Shown: positions 1,345 through 16,367 of the stretch, in pieces | Layout: every line of letters begins with the position of its first letter | How positions within the stretch are numbered: position 1 is the stretch's first letter | Origin: Promethearchaeota archaeon | GTDB lineage: Archaea > Asgardarchaeota > Lokiarchaeia > Sigyniarchaeales > SOKP01 | Reading direction: 5' to 3' | NCBI GenBank assembly: GCA_048938445.1 | Contig: JBHLME010000085.1 | Location: 1 to 19,331 of the forward strand | Length of the DNA: 19,331 nucleotides | Program-made: the position numbers and the translations under genes | The notes under the pieces: model-generated | What the model saw: the letters and a program-made list of their open reading frames with translations, nothing else | What the model was told of the DNA's origin: nothing | Databases searched by the model: none

Positions 1345-1384
1345 AACAAATGGTTTAAATATCTATTATTCCTATTTTAAATAT
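1345..1384 (+). promoter_or_regulatory. Candidate archaeal promoter(s) for the trp leader
   Basis: TTTAAATA at 1354-1361, preceded by purine-rich AACAAATGG, would put the start near 1385. A second TTTAAATA at 1376-1383 would give a nearly leaderless start at the ATG at 1408. The AT-rich background weakens the call. Confidence 0.4.
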
Positions 1385-1407
1385 AACATAAAATATGATT
1401 TAAAAAA

Positions 1408-1464
1408 ATGGCACCTGAAAATAATAGTTTCTGGCGTTGGCAGTGGCCTTGGCGTTGGCAATAA
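1408..1464 (+). CDS. trpL: Putative trp operon leader peptide MAPENNSFWRWQWPWRWQ
   Basis: ATG GCA CCT GAA AAT AAT AGT TTC TGG CGT TGG CAG TGG CCT TGG CGT TGG CAA TAA. Five TGG codons among the last 10 sense codons, in a GC-rich patch within AT-rich intergenic DNA, directly upstream of and co-oriented with the trp operon. Confidence 0.85.
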   Translation: MAPENNSFWRWQWPWRWQ

Positions 1465-1490
1465 CGCCCTTATCATTGGTTCAAATCATA

Positions 1491-1552
1491 TTTTAATGCG
1501 CTCACTTTTCTACGCTTTTATTAAATTTTAAAACATTATTGTTATAGCTTTT
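1491..1552 (+). terminator. Candidate U-tract (archaeal-type) conditional terminator after the leader peptide
   Basis: TTTT runs at 1491, 1506, 1516, 1526 and 1549 in a pyrimidine-rich stretch (CTCACTTTTCTACGCTTTTATT). No classic GC hairpin immediately followed by a long U run. Confidence 0.4.
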
Positions 1553-1639
1553 AGATGTGCGTTATTAATATTGAATTCCAATAATTAAACGATACACATC
1601 AACAATGTGATGTAATAATAGAAAAAAATTATAAATGGA

Positions 1640-1912
1640 ATGAAGAAAATGTTAAAGGAAAAATTAAAGAATGATAAAATTAATAATATAATTGCAAATC
1701 ATAGGGAGAAAACACAATATATGAAAAAAGAACAGAATTCAGTTCGAAATTTTATATTTTCTGAGATGATAAGACTTATTAATAATAAAGACAAATTCAT
1801 GTTAGGGCCTGAAAAAACTAAAGCTGCAAGTTTTATTGCAGATAATTATCTTGATGTATATAAATATCTTAATAATCTATTAAAAAATAATATTTTTGAG
1901 GGATTAGATTAA
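1640..1912 (+). CDS. Hypothetical 90-aa basic protein, first gene of the trp operon
   Basis: Open ORF whose TAA (1910-1912) directly abuts the trpD ATG (1913). No family recognised. Confidence 0.7.
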   Translation: MKKMLKEKLKNDKINNIIANHREKTQYMKKEQNSVRNFIFSEMIRLINNKDKFMLGPEKTKAASFIADNYLDVYKYLNNLLKNNIFEGLD

Positions 1913-2968
1913 ATGTCTGAAGAAATTATTGTAAAAGGATTAAAAAAAATAACAAATAGGAAAAACTTAACAGTTCAAGAAGCAGAAAGTATAATGAGAG
2001 AAATCATGTCTGGAAATGTAAACGACTCTCAATTAGGAGCCCTATTAACTGCATTAAGCATGAAAGGGGAGTCAATCGAGGAAATCACCGGTTTTGCTAG
2101 GATAATGAGGGAATTTTCAAACAGAATTAAACCAAATGTCCAAGGAGAATTATTAGACACGTGCGGAACGGGTGGAGATATAATTAAAACTTTTAATATC
2201 AGTACCTTATCAGCATTAGTAGTTGCAGGAGCAGGAATCCCCGTAGCAAAACATGGAAATAGAGCTGTTACTAGTAAATGTGGAAGTGCTGACATTTTGG
2301 AAGGATTGGGCGTTAAAATAGATTTACCCCCTGAAGATGTTAAAAAATGTATAGAACAAGTAGGAATAGGATTCATGTTTGCACCACTTTTTCATCCTGC
2401 AATGAAGTATGCGATGCCTACGAGAAGGGCATTAAAATTAAGAACTGTCTTCAACATTCTTGGGCCATTAACCAACCCAGCATCTGCACGTTGCCATACT
2501 TTGGGTGTATTTCAGAAGGATTTGGCTCCTGTGATGGCAAAAGTGTTAAATGGTTTAGAAGCAAAACACGTATATACAGTTCATAATTCATGTGGTATAG
2601 ATGAAGTTGCCCCAGTAGGGATTAATTACATTACAGAGGTAATTAATGGCAATATCGAATCTTATGCGCTGACTAATGAGGATTTTGGTGTTCCAAATTG
2701 CGTGGTGGATGATATACTTTCAGGGAATTTAGACGATAATCTCAAAATCGCCATAGATATCCTAAAGAACAATAAAAAAGATGCTAAATATAATACTGTT
2801 TTGATGAATGCTTCACTTGCATTAAATTCCGTAAATAAGGCGAATAATTTTAAGGAAGGTATTGAAATAGCTAAAAATTCTATAGAATCAGGAAATGCAT
2901 TTAAAAAACTTTTACAATTTATTGAAGTCTCGGGTGGAAATTCAGAAAAATTGAATAATTTACTATAA
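1913..2968 (+). CDS. trpD: Anthranilate phosphoribosyltransferase
   Basis: Motifs DTCGTGGD, TFNIST, VAKHGNRAVTSKCGSAD, FHPAMK, RTVFNILGPLTNP, GIDE. Confidence 0.98.
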   Translation: MSEEIIVKGLKKITNRKNLTVQEAESIMREIMSGNVNDSQLGALLTALSMKGESIEEITGFARIMREFSNRIKPNVQGELLDTCGTGGDIIKTFNISTLSALVVAGAGIPVAKHGNRAVTSKCGSADILEGLGVKIDLPPEDVKKCIEQVGIGFMFAPLFHPAMKYAMPTRRALKLRTVFNILGPLTNPASARCHTLGVFQKDLAPVMAKVLNGLEAKHVYTVHNSCGIDEVAPVGINYITEVINGNIESYALTNEDFGVPNCVVDDILSGNLDDNLKIAIDILKNNKKDAKYNTVLMNASLALNSVNKANNFKEGIEIAKNSIESGNAFKKLLQFIEVSGGNSEKLNNLL

Positions 2969-2976
2969 TTAAAGAA

Positions 2977-3783
2977 ATGGTTTTCATGGTTTCAAATAAA
3001 ATAAAAGAAATAGTAGAAAAAAGAAGAAAGTCATTGGAAATCGATAAGAATTTAATAAATAGTTTAAATGATATTAATCTTAATAAAAATCGAACACCTT
3101 TAAGTGAAAAAATTAAAAATAATCTTGATATTTCTATAATTTCTGAAATTAAACCTTCTTCACCTACTCTGGGGGAAATTCGAAATGATATTGATGTAAA
3201 GAAGACTGCAATTGAAATGCAAGATGCAGGAGTAGTAGGTCTTAGTATTCTAACTGAACCAAATTATTTCAATGGTAGTTATGATAACCTCCGGTTAGCA
3301 GTTGAAAATACAAATCTGCCCTGTTTAATGAAAGATTTTGTCATTGACGAGATACAATTTAAAATCGCACGTCAAATAGGAGCCACAAATATATTATTAA
3401 TAAATTCCATTGTGGATCTACCTAAATTTTATTCATTAAGTCAAAATTATGATCTTGAACCTCTTATAGAAATTCATGATGCAGAAGAAATAAAAGATAT
3501 AAGAGGATTATTAGAAGTTGGTTTTAAACCAAAATTATTGGGTGTAAATAATAGAAACCTAAAGACCTTAGAAATTGATTTGAATACTTCAAGACAGATC
3601 ATTCCAAAATTAAAGGAAGAATTTGGAGAAAAGCTACAAGTCGTTAGCGAAAGTGGTATAAATTCCAAGGATGAGATTACTTTCGTTCAACCTAGTGGTG
3701 CTGATGCTTTTTTAATTGGCTCTTCAATAATGAAATCAAATAATATCAAAGAAAAGATCTTGGAGTTGCGGGGGATAAAATAA
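2977..3783 (+). CDS. trpC: Indole-3-glycerol phosphate synthase
   Basis: Motifs ISEIKPSSPT, SILTEPNYFNGS, LMKDF, LIEIH, GVNNRNLKT, VSESGI, FLIGSSIM. Alternative start at 2986. Confidence 0.97.
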   Translation: MVFMVSNKIKEIVEKRRKSLEIDKNLINSLNDINLNKNRTPLSEKIKNNLDISIISEIKPSSPTLGEIRNDIDVKKTAIEMQDAGVVGLSILTEPNYFNGSYDNLRLAVENTNLPCLMKDFVIDEIQFKIARQIGATNILLINSIVDLPKFYSLSQNYDLEPLIEIHDAEEIKDIRGLLEVGFKPKLLGVNNRNLKTLEIDLNTSRQIIPKLKEEFGEKLQVVSESGINSKDEITFVQPSGADAFLIGSSIMKSNNIKEKILELRGIK

Positions 3784-4439
3784 TGGAATACGTGAAGATA
3801 TGTGGGTTAAAAAAACACGAGCATGTGCAACTTTGCATTAATAATGGTGCAGATGCCATTGGTTTCATCTATAATGTTCCTACATCTCCAAGAAACATGT
3901 TAAAACATGAAATAAAAGATTTGTTAGAACAAATTAAGAACAAGATATTAACAGTAATAGTTCTTAAACCATCTAACTTAGTTGAATTAGAAAAAACCAT
4001 GAATGATTTCAATCCTTCCTACTTCCAGATTCATTGTGATTTCAATCTTCAAGAGTTAAAGAAACTTGATCTCAAGGAGAGAAGAAAGCTAATTGTCGCA
4101 TTAAAAGTAAATCATGAGAATAAAGAATCTATAATAAGACTAATCGAACAAAATCACGACCAGTTTTTCGCTTTCTTGATAGATAATAGTGAAGGACATG
4201 GGAATGTATTAAATATTGATTTTTTAGGGGATGTATTGAAAAAAACTAGTGGAACTAATTTAATTGTTGCTGGTGGAATCACCATAGAAAATATAGAAAA
4301 TATTATGAAGGTTTTAAAACCGTTTGGAATTGATGTCAGCAGTTCCTTAGAATCTGAAAAAGGAGTTAAAGATTCTTCAAAAATAATAGAATTTTTAAAT
4401 AAAGTTAGAGAAATAAGGAAAAAAATGAGAATGAATTAG
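3783..4439 (+). CDS. trpF: Phosphoribosylanthranilate isomerase
   Basis: Motifs [42 protein letters not shown] overlap with trpC. Confidence 0.95.
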
Positions 4440-4441
4440 AA

Positions 4442-5644
4442 ATGGATTATATTGACAAATACCCTGATAAATTAGGAAAGTTTGGAGAATTTGGAGGCAT
4501 GTTCGCTCCTGAAATTCTAATGCCCGCTCTTAACGAACTCACTGAAGCATATGAAAAATACATGAGTGATGAGAGTTTCATTGGGGAATTTACTCAAATT
4601 CTTGAAAATTATAGTGGAAGACCAACACCATTATATTTTGCTGAAAGATATAGTAAATATATTGGATGCAAGGTTTACTTAAAACGAGAAGATTTAAATC
4701 ATGGGGGTGCCCATAAAATTAATAATGTCATGGGACAAGCACTTCTAGCTAAAAAGATGGGTAAAACGAAACTTGTTGCCGAAACTGGAGCAGGGCAGCA
4801 TGGATTTGCTACTGCCATTGCTGGAGCTTATTTTGGCATGCCTACTAAAGTATTCATGGGGGAAATTGATATAAAACGTCAAGCTTACAATGTTTATAGA
4901 ATGCAAATTCTTGGCGCAGAAGTGATTCCCGTTAAATCAGGATCTAGGACATTAAAAGACGCCGTAAATGATGGGCTTAGATATTGGATTGCTAACTTAC
5001 ATGACACACATTATTTGATGGGAAGCGTGGTTGGACCACATCCTTATCCCTTAATAGTGAGGGAATTTCAGAGAGTTATTGGTAAGGAATTAAAAGGACA
5101 AATATTAAAGTTAGAAAAAAGGCTCCCAAATGCAATAATTGCATGTATTGGGGGAGGAAGCAATGCAATTGGCGCTTTTTATGACTTTATTAATAATATA
5201 GATGTTCAATTGATCGGTGTGGAAGCGGCTGGAGAAGGTAAAGACACAGATAAGCACTCTATAGCATTGGGATTAGGTCGTAAAGGAGTGTTACATGGTG
5301 CAATGCAATTTCTCCTACAAAATGAATATGGTAATATCAGTGAAACTCATTCAATAAGTGCGGGTCTAGATTACCCCGGAGTAGGTCCAGAGCATTGTTA
5401 TTTAAAAGAATTAAATCGATTGAGAGTTGGTGAAGCGACTGATCAAGAAACTTTAGAGGCATTTCAGAGATTATCTGAGTTAGAAGGAATAATTCCTGCA
5501 CTGGAAAGTTCTCACGCTTTAGCATATTTAGAAAAAATTAAAAATGAGTTCAATAACAACGATATCGTTGTAATTAATCTTTCTGGATCAGGTTCAAAAG
5601 ATCTTGATATAATTAAAGAACACGTGGAGTTTAAGATAAAATGA
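4442..5644 (+). CDS. trpB: Tryptophan synthase beta chain (TrpB1 type)
   Basis: Motifs [32 protein letters not shown] (PLP lysine), [42 protein letters not shown]. Confidence 0.99.
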
Positions 5645-5675
5645 ATAAATATGAAACAAAAGGTGAGAAAGAATA

Positions 5676-6518
5676 ATGGAAACTGAATCAAACAGACTTA
5701 TAAAATTATTTTCTGATGAGAATCGAAAAAATGAGAAGTTCTTCATGCCTTTCCTAGTTGCTGGAGATCCTAGTATAGATGAATTTAAGAATCTAGTAGA
5801 AAAAATTGAACCTTACGCTGATATACTTGAGATTGGAGTGCCCTTTAGTGACCCAATTGCGGATGGTCCAACAATACAGGAAGCTAACGTGAGAGCTTTC
5901 AGTGCTGGTATTAATACTTCAGTTGCCTTGGATGCGATCAGAGATATCCGTGCCAAAACAGAAAAACCAATCGTGATTCTAACATATTATAACATTTTAA
6001 TTCAAGGAGCAGATACGATTGAAGAATCTCTTGATATTACTTTTAAGAGATTAAAAGTAAGCGGCGTTGATGGTATCGTTGTTGGAGATCTACCCGTAGA
6101 AGAAGCGGGATTAGCATTAACCGCATGTGAAAAGCACGATATATGCTTAATCTTTTTGATTGCCCCCTCTACAACACCAGATAGATTAACGAAAATATTA
6201 AAGGTAGCAAGAGGTTTTATTTATCTCATATCAGTCATGGGAGTTACAGGAACGCGAACCACGGTGGCTCAAATTACTAAAGATACGATAAATAAGATAT
6301 TAGATAAAACTGAAAATATGATTCCCGTTTTAGTAGGTTTTGGGATTTCACAACCCGAGCATGCGAAAATGATTGTCGATGAGGGTGCTGATGGTGTCAT
6401 AATAGGCTCCGCAATGGTTAAAATCATCAAAGAAAATTTGAGTGATTTTAAAAAAATGGAAACTGAAATGGTCGAGTTCGTTTCTAGTATAAAAAATGCT
6501 ATAAAGAGGCCGATTTAA
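5676..6518 (+). CDS. trpA: Tryptophan synthase alpha chain
   Basis: Motifs AGDP, LEIGVPFSDPIADGPTIQ, LTYYN, DLPVEE, GVTG, VGFGIS, DGVIIGSA. GGTGA RBS upstream. Confidence 0.98.
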   Translation: METESNRLIKLFSDENRKNEKFFMPFLVAGDPSIDEFKNLVEKIEPYADILEIGVPFSDPIADGPTIQEANVRAFSAGINTSVALDAIRDIRAKTEKPIVILTYYNILIQGADTIEESLDITFKRLKVSGVDGIVVGDLPVEEAGLALTACEKHDICLIFLIAPSTTPDRLTKILKVARGFIYLISVMGVTGTRTTVAQITKDTINKILDKTENMIPVLVGFGISQPEHAKMIVDEGADGVIIGSAMVKIIKENLSDFKKMETEMVEFVSSIKNAIKRPI

Positions 6519-6519
6519 T

Positions 6520-7137
6520 TTGACTGCTCAAGAACCAGATAGATTTTATTATCAAGATCAGAGATTAGATCTTGTTGGAATCAAAGGCAATGATCTAACT
6601 GTTCCTTTTGATTTTGGAATTGAAACTTATAGCCGTTCCACAAATTGTTGGAGAGGATATGTAATGCGATATAAAATTATTGGAAAACAATTAGTCTTGG
6701 ATGGTTTTTGGTTTAATTCAAAAAACAACGATCTCCCTAAAATCAATGGGATAAAACCCAATAAACTAGAAAAACCTAAGCCAGAATCGGGAAATTGGAT
6801 GCATCACTTATTTGAATTTGAATATAATGAACTAAATAAGAAAATACAATTCACTGGGAGCATCTGGTTAGCAAAAGATTTTATAGATTCTGAGTATGTT
6901 CACATGGGTTTTCAGAGTCCAACAGCATATAAAACTGTCTTAAAATTTGATTTTAAAGAGGGAGTAATTGTAAATGTAGAAGACAAATCTAAGGCTGTTG
7001 AAATCGCCAGAGAGAAAGGTGCTTGTAAGGAGCCTCAACCAAAATCAATGGATTCCAGAGATATTGAAGAGTGGATCATGAAACGCTTCTCGTTGGATAT
7101 AGATTATTTTAAAAATCAAAGTAATGATGAAAAATGA
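6520..7137 (+). CDS. Conserved hypothetical protein (TAQxPD...STxCWRGY type)
   Basis: TTG start 1 nt after the trpA stop, with AAGAGG upstream. N-terminal MTAQEPD and STNCWRGY resemble a family of uncharacterised prokaryotic proteins; function unknown. Confidence 0.85.
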   Translation: MTAQEPDRFYYQDQRLDLVGIKGNDLTVPFDFGIETYSRSTNCWRGYVMRYKIIGKQLVLDGFWFNSKNNDLPKINGIKPNKLEKPKPESGNWMHHLFEFEYNELNKKIQFTGSIWLAKDFIDSEYVHMGFQSPTAYKTVLKFDFKEGVIVNVEDKSKAVEIAREKGACKEPQPKSMDSRDIEEWIMKRFSLDIDYFKNQSNDEK

Positions 7138-8111
7138 TTGAATATAATGGAATTAAAATAGAATTAACAGAAATCGACAATTATAGGGGTTTTAATCTTT
7201 CTAATAAAGGTTTAAAAAGCTTGAATGAAGTTTTAGGTTTAGAAGGTGAAATTGAAGTTGAATATCTTGATATTTCTTATAACGAGCTGACTTCCCTTTC
7301 TGATGTAATTTTCACCTTACCTAATTTAAAGGTACTTTATGCGAGAGAAAATAAAATATCTAACATTCCAGAATCGATAGGTAATATAAATTCTCTTGAA
7401 TTTATCGAGTTGAGAGAAAATCGATTGAGAACTCTCCCAGAATCCATCGGAGAGCTTAGAAACCTAGATTCTCTCCTTTTGGACGGAAATCCCCTGGAAA
7501 ATCTTCCAGAATCACTTGGAAATCTTATTTCGCTGGAAACTCTGGGATTATTTGATACGAAATTGGAATATTTTCCAGAATCGATGAAAAAATTACCTCA
7601 ATTTCATTTAGATTTCAGTAATCCTTTTCTGACTAGATTTCCCCAGAGTATATTAAATATTAAAAACCTTATAGGGTTGAGTTTAGTGGAAAGTAATTTA
7701 GCATTTATTCCCGAAAATATTGATATCTTAAAGGACCTTAATTTTCTCAGCCTTAAGAATAATCAATTAAATTCATTACCCGAAACAATAGGAAATATAA
7801 GTTCACTATATTATCTAGAAATCGCAAAAAATAAGTTAACTTCATTACCAGAATCCATAGGTAACCTAACCTCACTTAAAATTCTTGATGTGATGGACAA
7901 TGAACTTACAACCCTCCCAGTTTCAATTGGAAATCTCAAGTCTCTCAAAAGGTTATATTTGCATTCGAATAGGATCTCAAGCATTCCAAAATCTATCCTT
8001 AATCTTGATTCCCTGGAAGACTTGGAGTTAACCAATAATCCAATTATGAATGAGAAAAATAATCCAATTATTGAAAAATTAAAAGAAAGAAATGTATTAA
8101 TTAATAACTAA
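7134..8111 (+). CDS. Leucine-rich repeat protein
   Basis: About 12 repeats of mostly 23 aa, consensus LxxLxLxxNxLxxLPESIGNLxS. ATGA overlap with the upstream gene. No signal peptide or other domain evident. Confidence 0.95.
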   Translation: MIEYNGIKIELTEIDNYRGFNLSNKGLKSLNEVLGLEGEIEVEYLDISYNELTSLSDVIFTLPNLKVLYARENKISNIPESIGNINSLEFIELRENRLRTLPESIGELRNLDSLLLDGNPLENLPESLGNLISLETLGLFDTKLEYFPESMKKLPQFHLDFSNPFLTRFPQSILNIKNLIGLSLVESNLAFIPENIDILKDLNFLSLKNNQLNSLPETIGNISSLYYLEIAKNKLTSLPESIGNLTSLKILDVMDNELTTLPVSIGNLKSLKRLYLHSNRISSIPKSILNLDSLEDLELTNNPIMNEKNNPIIEKLKERNVLINN

Positions 8112-8130
8112 TTAAATTTGGAGAAAAAAA

Positions 8131-9627
8131 ATGGAATTTGACATACATATTGAAAAAATTGGAGAGCTGGATGACATATTCGGCTTTTATAAGTATTTAG
8201 TAAAAAAATATGACTTGAAAAAGCATGCACTATTAGAATCAGCTTCAGAGAATACAAAAGAAACATTATATAGTTTTATTGCTCTGGATCCAGATTTCAT
8301 GTTAGAAATTAATGAAGAAAAATTTAAAATCTACGATATCACTACTGCCAGAGGTGAAAATATCAAGGAGTATGTCGAATCTAAAGACCCTGCTGAGGAA
8401 AGACCCCATAATCCATTACCTTTTAAGGATAACGTGGACTATAACATGGTTGCTCTAGACACTCTTAGCCATCTCACGCCTTATTCGAACCTTCCTTTCA
8501 CGGAATTATTTCCAAGAAATATATTTTATGGGGGAATGCTTGGCTATATTGGATATGATGTAGTGGCACCATATGTAGGATATAAATCCACAAGCGAGTT
8601 TCCCGATGTTCTCATGGCACTCTATACAAAAGTTTTAGTCTATTCTCATAGCTCGAATGCATTATTTATGATCGATAACAGCATTGATGACTATTCAAAA
8701 GATAAAGATATTCGTTATCAACTGAGCCTATTTAATAGAAATAATAAAAATAATGGAATGAAAGACATTCCTCTTGATATCGAAGAAGTAGATGAATCAA
8801 GTTTTAGATCTAATACTTCTAAATCCGCTCATGAACGGATGGTTGAGAAAACTAAAGAACATATTTATGCAGGTGATATAATACAAGCGGTTATTTCCCG
8901 AAGGCTATATACGGAGAGTAAAATAGACCCAATGCAGATATATGAGGTGTTAAGGACGCTTAATCCTTCCCAATACATGTATAATTTGAATTTTGATAAG
9001 ATAAAAATCATTGGTAGCAGCCCAGAAGCATTGATTTCTAAGAATAAGGATGTTCTAAATACAGTTCCAATTGCAGGAACCATACGACGAGGGAAGACTG
9101 CCGAAGAAGATTTTAAATTGGAACAAGAATTACTTAGCGATCCCAAGGAACAAGCGGAACACATCATGTTGGTCGATTTAGCGAGAAATGATCTTGCTAA
9201 AGTCTCATATCCTGGCTCTGTTGAGACTTATGAACTCATGGTAGTTCAAAAATATCAAAAAGTCCAGCATATAGTAAGTAAAGTGAGAAGCAGAACTCCT
9301 TTAGATGGATATCAGGTGTTAAAAAGCGTTTTTCCTGCCGGAACTCTGTCTGGAGCACCTAAAAAACGCGCAATGGAAATAATTCAGGATTTAGAAACAG
9401 AAAGTCGTGGTCCTTATGGCGGAGGCGTTGGATATTTTTCATTTAATGGAGACATGGCTTTTGCCATCGCAATAAGAACTTTATTTGGAAGGAATGGTAA
9501 TTATTATGCTCAAGCGGGAGGAGGAATAGTTGCTGATAGCCAGCCCCACGAGGAATATATAGAAACTTATAACAAATTATATAGCGTCTTAAAATCAATC
9601 AAAATTGCAGAGGCGAGAGAAAAATGA
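8131..9627 (+). CDS. trpE: Anthranilate synthase component I
   Basis: Motifs LLES, GGMLGYIGYD, GDIIQAVISRR, NPSQYM, GSSPE, PIAGT (anthranilate synthase type; PabB has PIKGT), EHIMLVDLARND, PAGTLSGAPK, RGPYGG, AGGGIVADS. Confidence 0.96.
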   Translation: MEFDIHIEKIGELDDIFGFYKYLVKKYDLKKHALLESASENTKETLYSFIALDPDFMLEINEEKFKIYDITTARGENIKEYVESKDPAEERPHNPLPFKDNVDYNMVALDTLSHLTPYSNLPFTELFPRNIFYGGMLGYIGYDVVAPYVGYKSTSEFPDVLMALYTKVLVYSHSSNALFMIDNSIDDYSKDKDIRYQLSLFNRNNKNNGMKDIPLDIEEVDESSFRSNTSKSAHERMVEKTKEHIYAGDIIQAVISRRLYTESKIDPMQIYEVLRTLNPSQYMYNLNFDKIKIIGSSPEALISKNKDVLNTVPIAGTIRRGKTAEEDFKLEQELLSDPKEQAEHIMLVDLARNDLAKVSYPGSVETYELMVVQKYQKVQHIVSKVRSRTPLDGYQVLKSVFPAGTLSGAPKKRAMEIIQDLETESRGPYGGGVGYFSFNGDMAFAIAIRTLFGRNGNYYAQAGGGIVADSQPHEEYIETYNKLYSVLKSIKIAEAREK

Positions 9628-10217
9628 AAATCCTATTTATCAATAATTATGACAGTTTTGTCTATAATCTTGTTAATTACATCTGCCAATTACAACCTGA
9701 TGCGGAAATTATTGTCGAAGATAACCATATTGCTGTGGATAAAGTTAAAGAAATGAATGTTGACAAGATAATTATTTCTCCCGGTCCAGGACATCCAAAA
9801 TATGACACGGGTACAGTGATTCCAATAATCAAGGAGTTCTACTCAAAAGTTCCCATATTAGGTATCTGTTTAGGTCATCAAGCGATCGTGGAAGCCATTG
9901 GTGAAGATGAACAAGTTGAATACGTTAGTCGTGCTAAAGTAGGGCCCATGCATGGAAAGGAATCTAAGATATTTCATGATCAGGAAACTATATTTAAGGA
10001 CATTCCTAATCCATTACAAGTGATAAGATATCATTCATTAGCAGCGAAAGGTGATATTCTTCCTAAAGATCTTAAAATAACTGCAACTGCAGATGATGGT
10101 ACGATAATGGCCATACGCCATAAAAAATTTCCTATTGAAGGTGTTCAATTTCACCCAGAATCTATAAAAATGAAACCTGATGGAATGAAGATATTGAAGA
10201 ATTTCTTAGAATTATAG
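9624..10217 (+). CDS. trpG: Anthranilate synthase component II (class I glutamine amidotransferase)
   Basis: Motifs NNYDSFVYNL, ISPGPGHP, GICLGHQ, RYHSL, GVQFHPES. ATGA overlap with trpE. Confidence 0.97.
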   Translation: MKILFINNYDSFVYNLVNYICQLQPDAEIIVEDNHIAVDKVKEMNVDKIIISPGPGHPKYDTGTVIPIIKEFYSKVPILGICLGHQAIVEAIGEDEQVEYVSRAKVGPMHGKESKIFHDQETIFKDIPNPLQVIRYHSLAAKGDILPKDLKITATADDGTIMAIRHKKFPIEGVQFHPESIKMKPDGMKILKNFLEL

Positions 10218-10228
10218 GAATTAAAGCA

Positions 10229-10927
10229 ATGAAAGATAAAATCAACTTGGATAAAGTTGCATTAATCGGGAGGAGATTTAAAGAATATTATAAGATCTTC
10301 AGATTGAGTGATTTTAATTCAAATTATATCAAGATCTTAGATGTAGGTTCTGGAGTCAGCTCATTTTGTGCTGAAGCACAAAAGTTTGGAATGAATGTAA
10401 CAGCAATAGATCCTATTTATGAATATGATGCTCATCAACTTGAAGAAAAGTGTGCAAAGGATTTAGACTTAGTAATTAAGGAGCTTAATGGCGTTGAGCA
10501 CTTATATATTTGGAATATATTCAAGACTAAAGAAGATTTGAAGGATCAACGAAAAGAAGCTTATAAAATATTTATTCACCACTACAAAAATAATAGAAAA
10601 AAGTTCTATATATCTGAAACCTTGCCAAAAACTTCATTTGAAAACAAACAATTCGATGTTATAATATCATCTCATCTTTTATTTCTTTACGACCACTTGT
10701 TTGACTACTCGTTTCATGAAGATGCAATCAAGGAGATGTTAAGGATAGCTTCAAGAGAAATCCGGTTATTTCCTCTCGTCAATCTATATGGTAAGAGCTC
10801 CAGGCGTCTTGATGGTATCTTAGAATATTTAGATCTCAATGATATTGAATGGTTTATTGAAAAAGTTGATTATGAATTCATTCGAGGTGGAAATGAAATG
10901 ATGAGGATTATAAAAAATAGTGTATAA
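10229..10927 (+). CDS. Class I SAM-dependent methyltransferase (copy 1)
   Basis: ILDVGSGVSSF motif I, AIDPIY, FDVIISSHLLFLY, EMLRIA, EIRLFP, YEFIRGGN. Starts 11 nt after the trpG stop. Confidence 0.9.
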   Translation: MKDKINLDKVALIGRRFKEYYKIFRLSDFNSNYIKILDVGSGVSSFCAEAQKFGMNVTAIDPIYEYDAHQLEEKCAKDLDLVIKELNGVEHLYIWNIFKTKEDLKDQRKEAYKIFIHHYKNNRKKFYISETLPKTSFENKQFDVIISSHLLFLYDHLFDYSFHEDAIKEMLRIASREIRLFPLVNLYGKSSRRLDGILEYLDLNDIEWFIEKVDYEFIRGGNEMMRIIKNSV

Positions 10928-14196: not shown

Positions 14197-14388
14197 TTCA
14201 AACCAAAACCCTTAATATTTCAAGAGTATACGTTAATTTTAATTAAATATATATTATATGTCTTTTATCCCATTAAAAATTATGTGGTATAATTACATAT
14301 AAAGATATTTTGATTTTTAAAGTCATTTTATCATAACGATAACTTGTACCATGTTAAAACAAATAATCATAGGTTACTCGGTATTGAT

Positions 14389-14790
14389 GTTATTCCAATA
14401 ATCAAGGAATTCTGCTCAAAAGTTCCCATATTAGGGATTTATTTGGATCATCAAGCGATTGTGGAAACATTCGGTGAAGATGAGCAAGTAGAACATATTG
14501 GTCGTGCTAAAGTAAGTCCCATACATAGAAAGCAATCTAAGATATTCCTTAATCAGGAAACCATATTTAAGGATATACCAAAACCATTACAATTCATAAG
14601 ATATCATTCCTTTGCTGCCAAGTCTGATATTCTGCCTCAATATCTAAAGATCAGCGCTACAGCAGATGATGGAGTGATAATGGGAGTGCGTCATAAGCAT
14701 TATCCCGTTGAAGTACTTCAATACCACCCCGAATCCATTAAGATGAAACCACATGGAATGATAATATTAAAAAGTTTCTAGGATTTATAA
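14389..14790 (+). pseudogene. trpG: 5'-truncated, degenerate trpG copy 2
   Basis: Collinear with 9816-10217 at a constant offset of 4573 with no net indel. Lacks the N-terminal 64 codons. Catalytic GICLGHQ has become GIYLDHQ. Premature TAG at 14779-14781, three codons before the ancestral stop position (TAA 14788-14790). Confidence 0.92.
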
Positions 14791-15671: not shown

Positions 15672-16367
15672 ATGAAAGATAGAATAAATCTTGATAAAGC
15701 TGCATTGATTGGTAGGACATTCGAAGAATATTATAAGATCTTCAGATTAAGCGTTTTTAATTCAAATCAAATTAAAATCTTGGATGTAGGGTCAGGTGTT
15801 AGTTCTTTTTGTGCAGAAGCGTGTGAAAAAGGAATGAATGTAATTGCAATGGACCCTATCTATAACTTCGACCCTATTGAGCTACAGATGAAATGTGAAA
15901 TGGATTTAGAGCACGTTATTAACGAACTTGATGGCGTTGAACATTTATATATCTGGGATATTTTTCACGATAAAAATGATTTGAAAGAACAAAGAGAAAG
16001 AGCATATAAAACCTTTCTCAAGCATTATCAACACCATAAAGGGGAACGATATATTGCTGAAAAGATGCCAAAAACATCATTTAGGAATGCACAATTTGAT
16101 GCCATCATCTCATCTCATTTATTTTTCTTGTACGATCATATTTTTGACTATCGATTTTATGAAGATGCGATTAAGGAAATGCTCAGGATTGTTTTAAAGG
16201 AAATTCGCATATTTCCTCTTGTCAGTCTAAATGGTAAGAGATCCAAATATTTTGATAATTTTTTGGAATACCTTAACCTTCAGAATGTTAAGATTTCAAT
16301 TGAAAAGGTTGATTATGAATTCATTCGAGGAGGAAATGAGTTTTTAAGGATTAAAAAAATGAAATAG
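15672..16367 (+). CDS. Class I SAM-dependent methyltransferase (copy 2, paralog of 10229-10927)
   Basis: Same motifs as copy 1; 53 of the first 64 residues are identical by manual alignment. Confidence 0.9.
   Translation: MKDRINLDKAALIGRTFEEYYKIFRLSVFNSNQIKILDVGSGVSSFCAEACEKGMNVIAMDPIYNFDPIELQMKCEMDLEHVINELDGVEHLYIWDIFHDKNDLKEQRERAYKTFLKHYQHHKGERYIAEKMPKTSFRNAQFDAIISSHLFFLYDHIFDYRFYEDAIKEMLRIVLKEIRIFPLVSLNGKRSKYFDNFLEYLNLQNVKISIEKVDYEFIRGGNEFLRIKKMK

Follow-up and report, generated by a model that had tools for sequence, protein, structure and literature searches.

Why should the start codon of a short, tryptophan-rich open reading frame (ORF) ahead of an archaeal tryptophan (trp) operon lie in one arm of a long inverted repeat, with the other arm placed just behind the same frame? 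The question is raised by contig JBHLME010000085.1 of a Loki-type Asgard archaeon (Promethearchaeota; assembly GCA_048938445.1), whose whole 19,331-nucleotide (nt) stretch we analysed and call the window. Our preferred answer, for which we see about even chances, is that this leader is a Trp-sensing attenuator read by the ribosome through the leader peptide, and that the helix formed by the repeat, here called P1, would close only after the ribosome has left. The features discussed below are collected in Table 1.

On direct reading of the window, TAAAATATGATTT (1389–1401) is the exact reverse complement of AAATCATATTTTA (1483–1495) over 13 nt, and a repeat search widens the pair to 1389–1410 and 1474–1495 (22 nt, 86% complementary, 63 nt apart). 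An earlier note, made from the letters alone, had described this exact repeat, and both approaches recover it. The inner pairs that it listed (AA 1403–1404 with TT 1480–1481; AATGG 1407–1411 with TCATT 1473–1477) are present as well, and the leader AUG (1408–1410) pairs with CAU 1474–1476 inside P1. The note's view that the repeat encloses the leader ORF and pairs over its AUG was thus borne out, and the ORF is conserved and Trp-rich. The outward extension that it proposed (CA 1387–1388 with TG 1497–1498) appears in one fold but requires one bulged A. When the segment 1380–1640 (261 nt) is folded, as the note had suggested, the helix is present in both the minimum-free-energy and the centroid fold; the fold itself, however, is unexceptional (z −1.41; 18 of 200 shuffles fold equally well), which counts against our reading. 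Since this z-score is unremarkable, the single-sequence evidence for the helix is weak and its weight comes from relatives.

The repeat could also have nothing to do with RNA, being either the DNA operator half-sites of a Trp-responsive repressor or an accidental match in AT-rich DNA. Within the whole window, no exact inverted repeat with a loop of at most 120 nt is longer than 13 nt, and this length was reached in 5 of 500 first-order Markov resamples of 1318–1640, an intergenic stretch with a GC content of 26%; both the base composition and these resamples speak for chance. In favour of the operator version, archaeal trp operons are known to be regulated by DNA-binding proteins, TrpY among them. 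Homologous leaders, found by a DNA search of 40 relatives, bear on both versions. Rows L040 and L081 were dropped as false pattern matches and L030 and L059 as duplicates, and the set of 100 leaders to which counts refer below, unless stated otherwise, is without the duplicates and near-duplicates L176, L178, L180, L187, L196, L201 and L235 and also without L167–L170.

In a MAFFT alignment of 29 leaders, 72.6% of the P1 cells are paired, compared to 38–47% when the partners are slid by one to three columns; the 100 model-aligned leaders give the same 72.6%, against 35–44% when slid. In the larger set, cells changed on both sides number 327 where 172 are expected, and the covariation score of 0.291 (0.170 when shuffled) was reached by none of 500 shuffles. 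Examples of the pair types found at single positions are AU 36, GC 34 and GU 9; AU 45 and UA 31; and GC 48, AU 18 and GU 7. The AUG:CAU pairs are invariant (U:A in 99 leaders, G:C in 96) and hence show no covariation. By eye, at least ten types of arm keep their complementarity while their sequences change, for example AAATAGTCC with GGACTATTT, TGGTTTAG with CTAAACCA, ATTAAGGAA with TTCCTTAAT, and GATTTGGTTTA with TAAACCAAATC. Furthermore, the G·U pairs in P1 can be read on the plus strand only, as the other strand would show C·A. Arms that change and stay complementary, together with G·U pairs on one strand only, argue for an RNA helix rather than an operator pair. The earlier note had named covariation in homologous leaders as a check on its helix, and here the pairing stands above both the slid and the shuffled controls.

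When the leaders were tested singly, the P1 duplex between the 5′ region and the region after the ORF beat 60 shuffles at p ≤ 0.05 in 49 of 100, with 2 of 4 leaders significant in the window's own genus. Pairing of the left arm with the next 75 nt, which served as a control, was significant in 3 of 100 leaders; an alternative partner for the right arm within the next 75 nt reached p ≤ 0.05 in 8 of 100, which is near chance. An early test that set cognate against non-cognate arms in 29 leaders (mean −14.0 against −11.9 kcal/mol) discriminated poorly because many leaders share arm types, and shuffle controls replaced it. Operators would be expected to keep their sequence, whereas here it is the complementarity that stays; arm length and position relative to the AUG also differ between lineages, and cognate pairing far exceeds the control pairings. 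An operator or a chance match therefore seems highly improbable to us. As far as comparison between relatives can tell, P1 is a real, covarying, but not universal RNA helix of the plus strand.

The ORF enclosed by this helix is likewise held in common. A small W-rich frame is found in all of 72 further loci that we fetched, with 2–5 Trp within the last 14 residues, and in 82 of 90 leaders an in-frame ATG is followed by an open frame, compared to 1/90 and 3/90 for two control frames. There are 96 distinct peptides among the 100 leaders. Judged by these comparisons, the leader ORF is real and kept as a reading frame across relatives. Counting Trp from the model-aligned start column gave none in 5 of 100 leaders, in which the start column is misplaced. 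The window's own ORF has Trp codons starting at 1432, 1438, 1444, 1450 and 1456, and on direct reading there is no Shine-Dalgarno sequence ahead of its AUG. In some relatives (L085, L174, L200, L053, L227, L228, L231, L238, L239 and L241) the ORF extends beyond the usual stop into or through the conserved CAUUGG, with fewer Trp codons in some of them; this looks like the result of small indels in the Trp run.

Codon choice within the Trp run is also unusual. Arginine is encoded by CGT in 90 of 118 leader codons, compared to 8 of 74 in the trp genes of the window, where AGA is preferred (40/74); for glutamine, CAG accounts for 91 of 124 leader codons and for 14 of 55 in the trp genes, where CAA is preferred (41/55). 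The synonymous sites of the run are thus constrained, so the RNA sequence itself matters. Part of this sequence folds into a hairpin that spans the final Trp codon and the stop codon, with 89.1% of its cells paired in the 29 leaders and 86.2% in the 100. As TGGCGTTGGCA is present twice (1432–1442 and 1450–1460), AACGCC at 1463–1468 could pair with either copy.

Is the left arm of P1 part of the transcript at all? L002, the closest relative, retains the candidate TATA box at 1355–1362 but not a second TATA-like run, 1377–1384, which would yield a leaderless mRNA lacking the left arm. Across the 100 leaders, TATA-like motifs peak at −60 to −51 from the AUG (66 matches in two bins), and the left arm begins at a median of −19. 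With the usual archaeal spacing of about 23–25 nt between TATA box and start site, we infer that transcription starts near 1382–1387, about 25 nt before the AUG, which would place the left arm inside the RNA. The earlier note had reasoned that a start downstream of about 1401 would take this arm out of the RNA; the predicted start lies upstream of that point.

These elements could work together as follows. P1 would join the predicted 5′ end of the transcript and the AUG (1389–1411) to the segment after the ORF (1473–1495), and since its arms flank the ORF, the whole frame would sit in the P1 loop. The CAUUGG motif of the 3′ strand starts at a median of 9 nt past the stop codon and 21 nt past the last Trp codon; given the size of a ribosome footprint, a ribosome on the last codons would reach or abut this strand. 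A ribosome on the 3′ part of the ORF would thereby keep P1 from closing. When charged tRNA-Trp is plentiful, the ribosome would finish the peptide and leave, and P1 would close; that a closed P1 would mask the predicted 5′ end and the AUG follows directly from the pairing, and further ribosomes could then not load. The closed helix and the U-runs after it would favour premature termination. When charged tRNA-Trp is scarce, the ribosome would stall on the Trp run, P1 would stay open, and the polymerase would read into trpD and the genes that follow or, in most relatives, into trpB2. Because neither arm of P1 has a conserved alternative partner, the simplest switch would be P1 open versus P1 closed. 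The transcription start, the stalling of the ribosome and, above all, the step from P1 closure to termination are what we infer.

The earlier note had proposed that closure of the helix blocks re-initiation and so leaves the downstream RNA free of ribosomes and open to termination. This logic is compatible with the structure but incomplete, since a stalled ribosome also leaves the RNA downstream of it bare. As both states have bare RNA, the difference between them must lie in whether the helix is open or closed. Archaeal terminators are described as U-tracts of four to seven U bound by aCPSF1/FttA (PMC8716108), and FttA is hypothesised to act on polymerase uncoupled from the ribosome (PMC11616081).

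The segment behind P1 has the composition that termination would predict. In 85 of the 100 leaders (15 have no P4 apex recognisable by regular expression), the linker between P1 and the P4 hairpin is 51% T and 5% G. Runs of five or more T occur in 67 of the 85 linkers and runs of five or more A in 16; for runs of at least four, the numbers are 184 for T and 48 for A. Among the 49 leaders with a significant P1, a run of at least four T follows the 3′ end of the helix in 48, at a median of 4 nt, and a run of at least five in 41, at a median of 12 nt.

This asymmetry bears on a further explanation, in which ribosome stalling and refolding of P1 would decide how well the first gene is translated or how stable the mRNA is, with no regulated termination, and in which P1 might shield the 5′ end or delimit a stable, trans-acting leader RNA. 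In its favour, a GGTGA/GGTAA-like motif and the start codon of the downstream gene come directly after P5 and an A-rich stretch, and in the fold of the window the U-rich linker is paired with the A-rich sequence ahead of that start codon. Small RNAs derived from attenuators are also known in bacteria (PMC7968998, PMC7298713). However, a translational switch does not need the excess of T over A runs after P1. Moreover, 125–230 nt separate the leader ORF from the next start codon, and the P1 arms have no conserved pairing with downstream sequence. We consider this post-transcriptional explanation improbable.

Further hairpins lie downstream of P1. The first, P3, is a variable hairpin of the linker that beats shuffles in 32 of 77 leaders (23 of the 100 were left out), and 13 of these 32 have a run of at least four U within 12 nt after it. 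Within the same 77 leaders, 27 have P1 only, 24 have P3 only, 8 have both and 18 have neither, an odds ratio of 0.22 that is descriptive because kin are not independent. P3 may be a lineage-specific substitute for P1, to judge from this pattern. It often precedes a CUCUUUUU-like run, for example in L209, L212 and L223.

The second, P4, is the most conserved part of the leader, more so than P1. In the MAFFT alignment A4, which comprises 96 downstream sequences, is not fitted to any structure and is without L189, L237 and L241 as too short, 83.6% of the P4 cells are paired, compared to 31–48% when slid. Its covariation score of 0.243 (0.126 when shuffled) was reached by none of 500 shuffles, and G·U pairs are present. 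RNAalifold predicted no pairs on these 96 sequences, and P4 was then counted from a hand-drawn structure. The G·U pairs and compensatory changes favour an RNA hairpin over a second promoter with a palindromic operator, but P4 may also act as DNA. The third, P5, and the base of P4 compete for one CAC; P5 varies in relatives, by eye, as CACATC/GATGTG or CATCATAT/ATATGATG. Together, P4 and P5 may form a second regulatory layer. Some other ideas about this region were dropped. In some relatives the apex of P4 is similar to the tRNA-Trp anticodon arm of the genome, and mimicry of a tRNA was considered; the window's P4 matches tRNA-Gln best (10/14; tRNA-Trp 9/14), and the idea was rejected. Inspected by eye, the bulge in P4 was also considered as a K-turn or a box C/D element; this idea was given up, as the order of the elements does not fit. 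A match of 1484–1496 to 1528–1540, which might have been a classical antiterminator, was rejected because it is not conserved in relatives.

Besides the unexceptional fold, several observations weigh against the attenuator that we propose. As A2 and A3 are alignments fitted to the structure of the model, they lean towards it, and P1 is insignificant in 51 of the 100 leaders when these are tested singly. The helix is weak in much of genus g11, where 13 of 41 leaders are significant, and neither of the 2 leaders of g10 nor the single one of g5 reaches significance; if P1 is the core of the mechanism, these lineages must work differently. By rough geometry, the tethers are so long that the outer 13 base pairs could perhaps still close with a ribosome stalled on the final Trp codon inside. 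The window itself has U4 runs only, and these start at least 11 nt beyond P1. The strongly conserved P4 and P5 have no role in a model built on P1. Finally, archaeal termination is described with no strict need for an upstream hairpin, so a helper role of P1 in termination would be without precedent in those accounts, as far as the available parts of PMC8716108 go.

Alternatively, and close to what the earlier note had worded, P1 might do nothing beyond restricting the leader to one co-transcriptional round of translation, by masking the 5′ end and the AUG, and termination would be decided elsewhere, with P3 and its U-run, P4/P5, or aCPSF1/FttA termination on ribosome-free RNA as candidate deciders. 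The near-invariance of the AUG:CAU pairing and the place of the left arm at the predicted 5′ end would fit such a role, as would the leaders with a significant P3, a part of them followed by a U-run, and the conservation of P4 above that of P1. The trp leader of E. coli, too, conceals its ribosome-binding site once a first round of translation is over. The proposed action of FttA on uncoupled polymerase (PMC11616081) fits as well. Against this, a stalled and a released ribosome both leave bare RNA, so an extra switch would be needed, and neither P1 arm has a conserved downstream partner. The near-exclusivity of P1 and P3 also fits the substitution of one structure for another in a single job better than two separate jobs. 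On balance, a helix that only limits translation to one round seems rather unlikely to us.

How widely is this leader distributed? In a pattern scan of species-representative genomes, the matches listed were mostly GC-rich chance ones, and low-GC loci with the same leader were also among them. The following counts are for a covariance model, R1, of 135 positions and 27 base pairs, whose negatives mean that the leader was not found by this model in the sampled genomes. The window's own genome has a single R1 match. When the order was sampled, R1 matched 102 of 131 other genomes of the window's family, f1, with at least one match in each of its 13 genera; the three other families, sampled with 19 genomes, gave none. 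A sample of the phylum gave matches in 20 of 25 genomes of the family and in none of 125 genomes from 26 other families. Seven genomes have two copies; in those that could be read, one copy stands before trpD and the other before trpB2. In a short-ORF scan of the window's genome for leaders of other amino acids, which has little sensitivity for Leu, Ile, Phe and Lys leaders, the 573 candidates were mostly noise and no such leader was found; the 6 candidates inspected have no same-strand ORF of at least 80 amino acids (aa) within 600 nt.

Textbooks present leader-peptide attenuation as a consequence of the coupling between transcription and translation, and the leader described here resembles the bacterial example, E. 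coli trpL, in several respects: a short ORF with Trp codons lies directly upstream of trp genes, conserved RNA helices and U-runs lie between this ORF and the first gene, and the logic rests on coupling. It differs in its archaeal host, in its Trp codons (3–6, alternating with Arg, Gln or Pro codons, compared to two adjacent ones in trpL) and in its main helix, which encloses the entire ORF and its start codon, whereas the trpL helices lie inside and after the ORF. The earlier note had stated that the layout departs from the E. coli 1:2/2:3/3:4 scheme, and we agree, as there is no conserved antiterminator of the 2:3 type. In the whole window, Rfam 15 families gave no matches at gathering thresholds, and at E ≤ 10 the segment 1340–1920 yielded only noise from the S15 leader (E 0.52); Trp_leader, the Rfam family of the bacterial trp attenuator, is thus among the families without a match.

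A second comparison concerns P1. Work from the Yanofsky laboratory reportedly found that a distal segment of the E. coli trp leader pairs with its ribosome-binding site and makes its translation self-limiting. In both leaders a segment transcribed later would pair with the leader's own initiation region, so that only an early ribosome translates. In the archaeal leader, however, it is the AUG itself and the extreme 5′ end that are paired; a Shine-Dalgarno sequence is lacking, and the helix is the dominant structure of the leader. TrpY, a DNA-binding promoter repressor of archaeal trp operons, shares the archaeal trp-gene target with this leader; it acts as a protein on DNA, with no leader peptide or RNA structure involved.

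Beyond trp, leaderless poly-Cys short ORFs in mycobacteria are reported to be Cys-responsive attenuators (bioRxiv 10.1101/834739). Like the leader ORF here, they are at or near the mRNA 5′ end, are rich in one amino acid and control an operon; unlike it, they are bacterial, and the opening of that abstract mentions no helix enclosing the ORF. The archaeal terminators (PMC8716108, PMC11616081) share with our linker the U4–U7 tracts and a factor proposed for uncoupled polymerase; they are general and placed at gene ends, and the parts of these accounts available to us do not describe conditional use in a 5′ leader or dependence on a helix. Full-text literature searches of one paper library found no description of leader-peptide attenuation in archaea, and as far as this literature shows, it has been described so far only in bacteria.

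It is tempting to speculate, and we do so tentatively, that a single Asgard (Promethearchaeia) family harbours the first archaeal ribosome-mediated amino-acid attenuator, in which a ribosome in the loop would hold a terminator-like helix open, with two states and no antiterminator, and in which the terminator-like stem would be built from the mRNA 5′ end and the segment just after the leader ORF. The kind is known from bacteria; what would be new is the domain of life and the architecture. If this is true, control of transcription or of the fate of the mRNA by translating ribosomes extends to the prokaryotes most closely related to eukaryotes. The leader would offer a natural cis-element for studies of archaeal coupling and of U-tract/FttA termination, with about 100 natural variants as ready-made compensatory mutants.

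Table 1. Coordinates of the leader elements and of the genes that follow them in the window (UTR, untranslated region; BRE, B recognition element).
Feature	Coordinates	Strand	Remarks
Candidate archaeal BRE/TATA	1352–1363	+	TTTAAATA at 1355–1362
P1 5′ arm, outer	1389–1401	+	In predicted 5′ UTR; exact complement, columns covary with 3′ arm
P1 inner 5′ strand	1403–1411	+	Includes start codon AUG 1408–1410; partner is 1473–1481
Leader ORF	1408–1464	+	MAPENNSFWRWQWPWRWQ; 18 codons, stop TAA 1462–1464
Trp-codon run	1432–1458	+	Five Trp codons alternating with CGT, CAG, CCT, CGT
Hairpin over last Trp codon and stop codon	1451–1468	+	GGCGTTG / TAACGCC
P1 inner 3′ strand	1473–1481	+	Holds conserved CATTGG 1474–1479, whose CAU pairs with AUG
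P1 3′ arm, outer	1483–1495	+	Exact complement of 1389–1401
U-rich, G-poor linker	1506–1552	+	U4 runs 1506–1509, 1516–1519, 1526–1529, 1549–1552; candidate termination signals
P4 hairpin	1554–1600	+	ATGTGCGTTATTAAT ATTG AATTC CAAT AATTAAACGATACACAT
P5 small hairpin	1595–1609	+	CACAT / ATGTG; competes for CAC at P4 base; by eye
90-aa ORF, first after leader	1640–1912	+	
trpD, trpC, trpF, trpB, trpA, two unrelated ORFs, trpE, trpG	1913–10217	+	Pfam above curated cut-offs

The leader stands before different genes in different relatives. The gene 3′ of it is TrpB2-like in 86 of the 100 leaders (identity checked on 2 of the 86, which match NF009057 at 638 and 643 bits), trpD in 9 and a small ORF of 80–90 aa in 4, with one locus cut. 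In the window's own genome, trpB2 is on another contig (C67, 5416–6813, minus strand) and is 88.6% identical to the trpB2 of L116; the region upstream of it is plain and promoter-like, with no Trp leader. From such arrangements, the leader seems to move between trp transcription units. Comparisons of the 90-aa ORF that follows the leader in the window with Pfam, NCBIfam and Atlas gave no family or lead. Small ORFs with an FGPEK(S/T)K motif that are similar to it follow the leader in L004, L213 and L222.

The window has a GC content of 31%, and its trpB matches TIGR00263 at 596 bits. The two ORFs between trpA and trpE (6520–8111, plus strand) are unrelated to Trp synthesis: one encodes 205 aa, for which a Pfam comparison gave no family, and the other a 325-aa protein that looks by eye like a leucine-rich-repeat protein. 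Further downstream on the plus strand, also by eye, a 145-aa ORF (14344–14781) resembles the C-terminal part of TrpG (9624–10217), and a 231-aa ORF (15672–16367) closely resembles the ORF at 10229–10927. These two resemblances suggest that the trpG end of the operon was duplicated as a segment that has since degraded.

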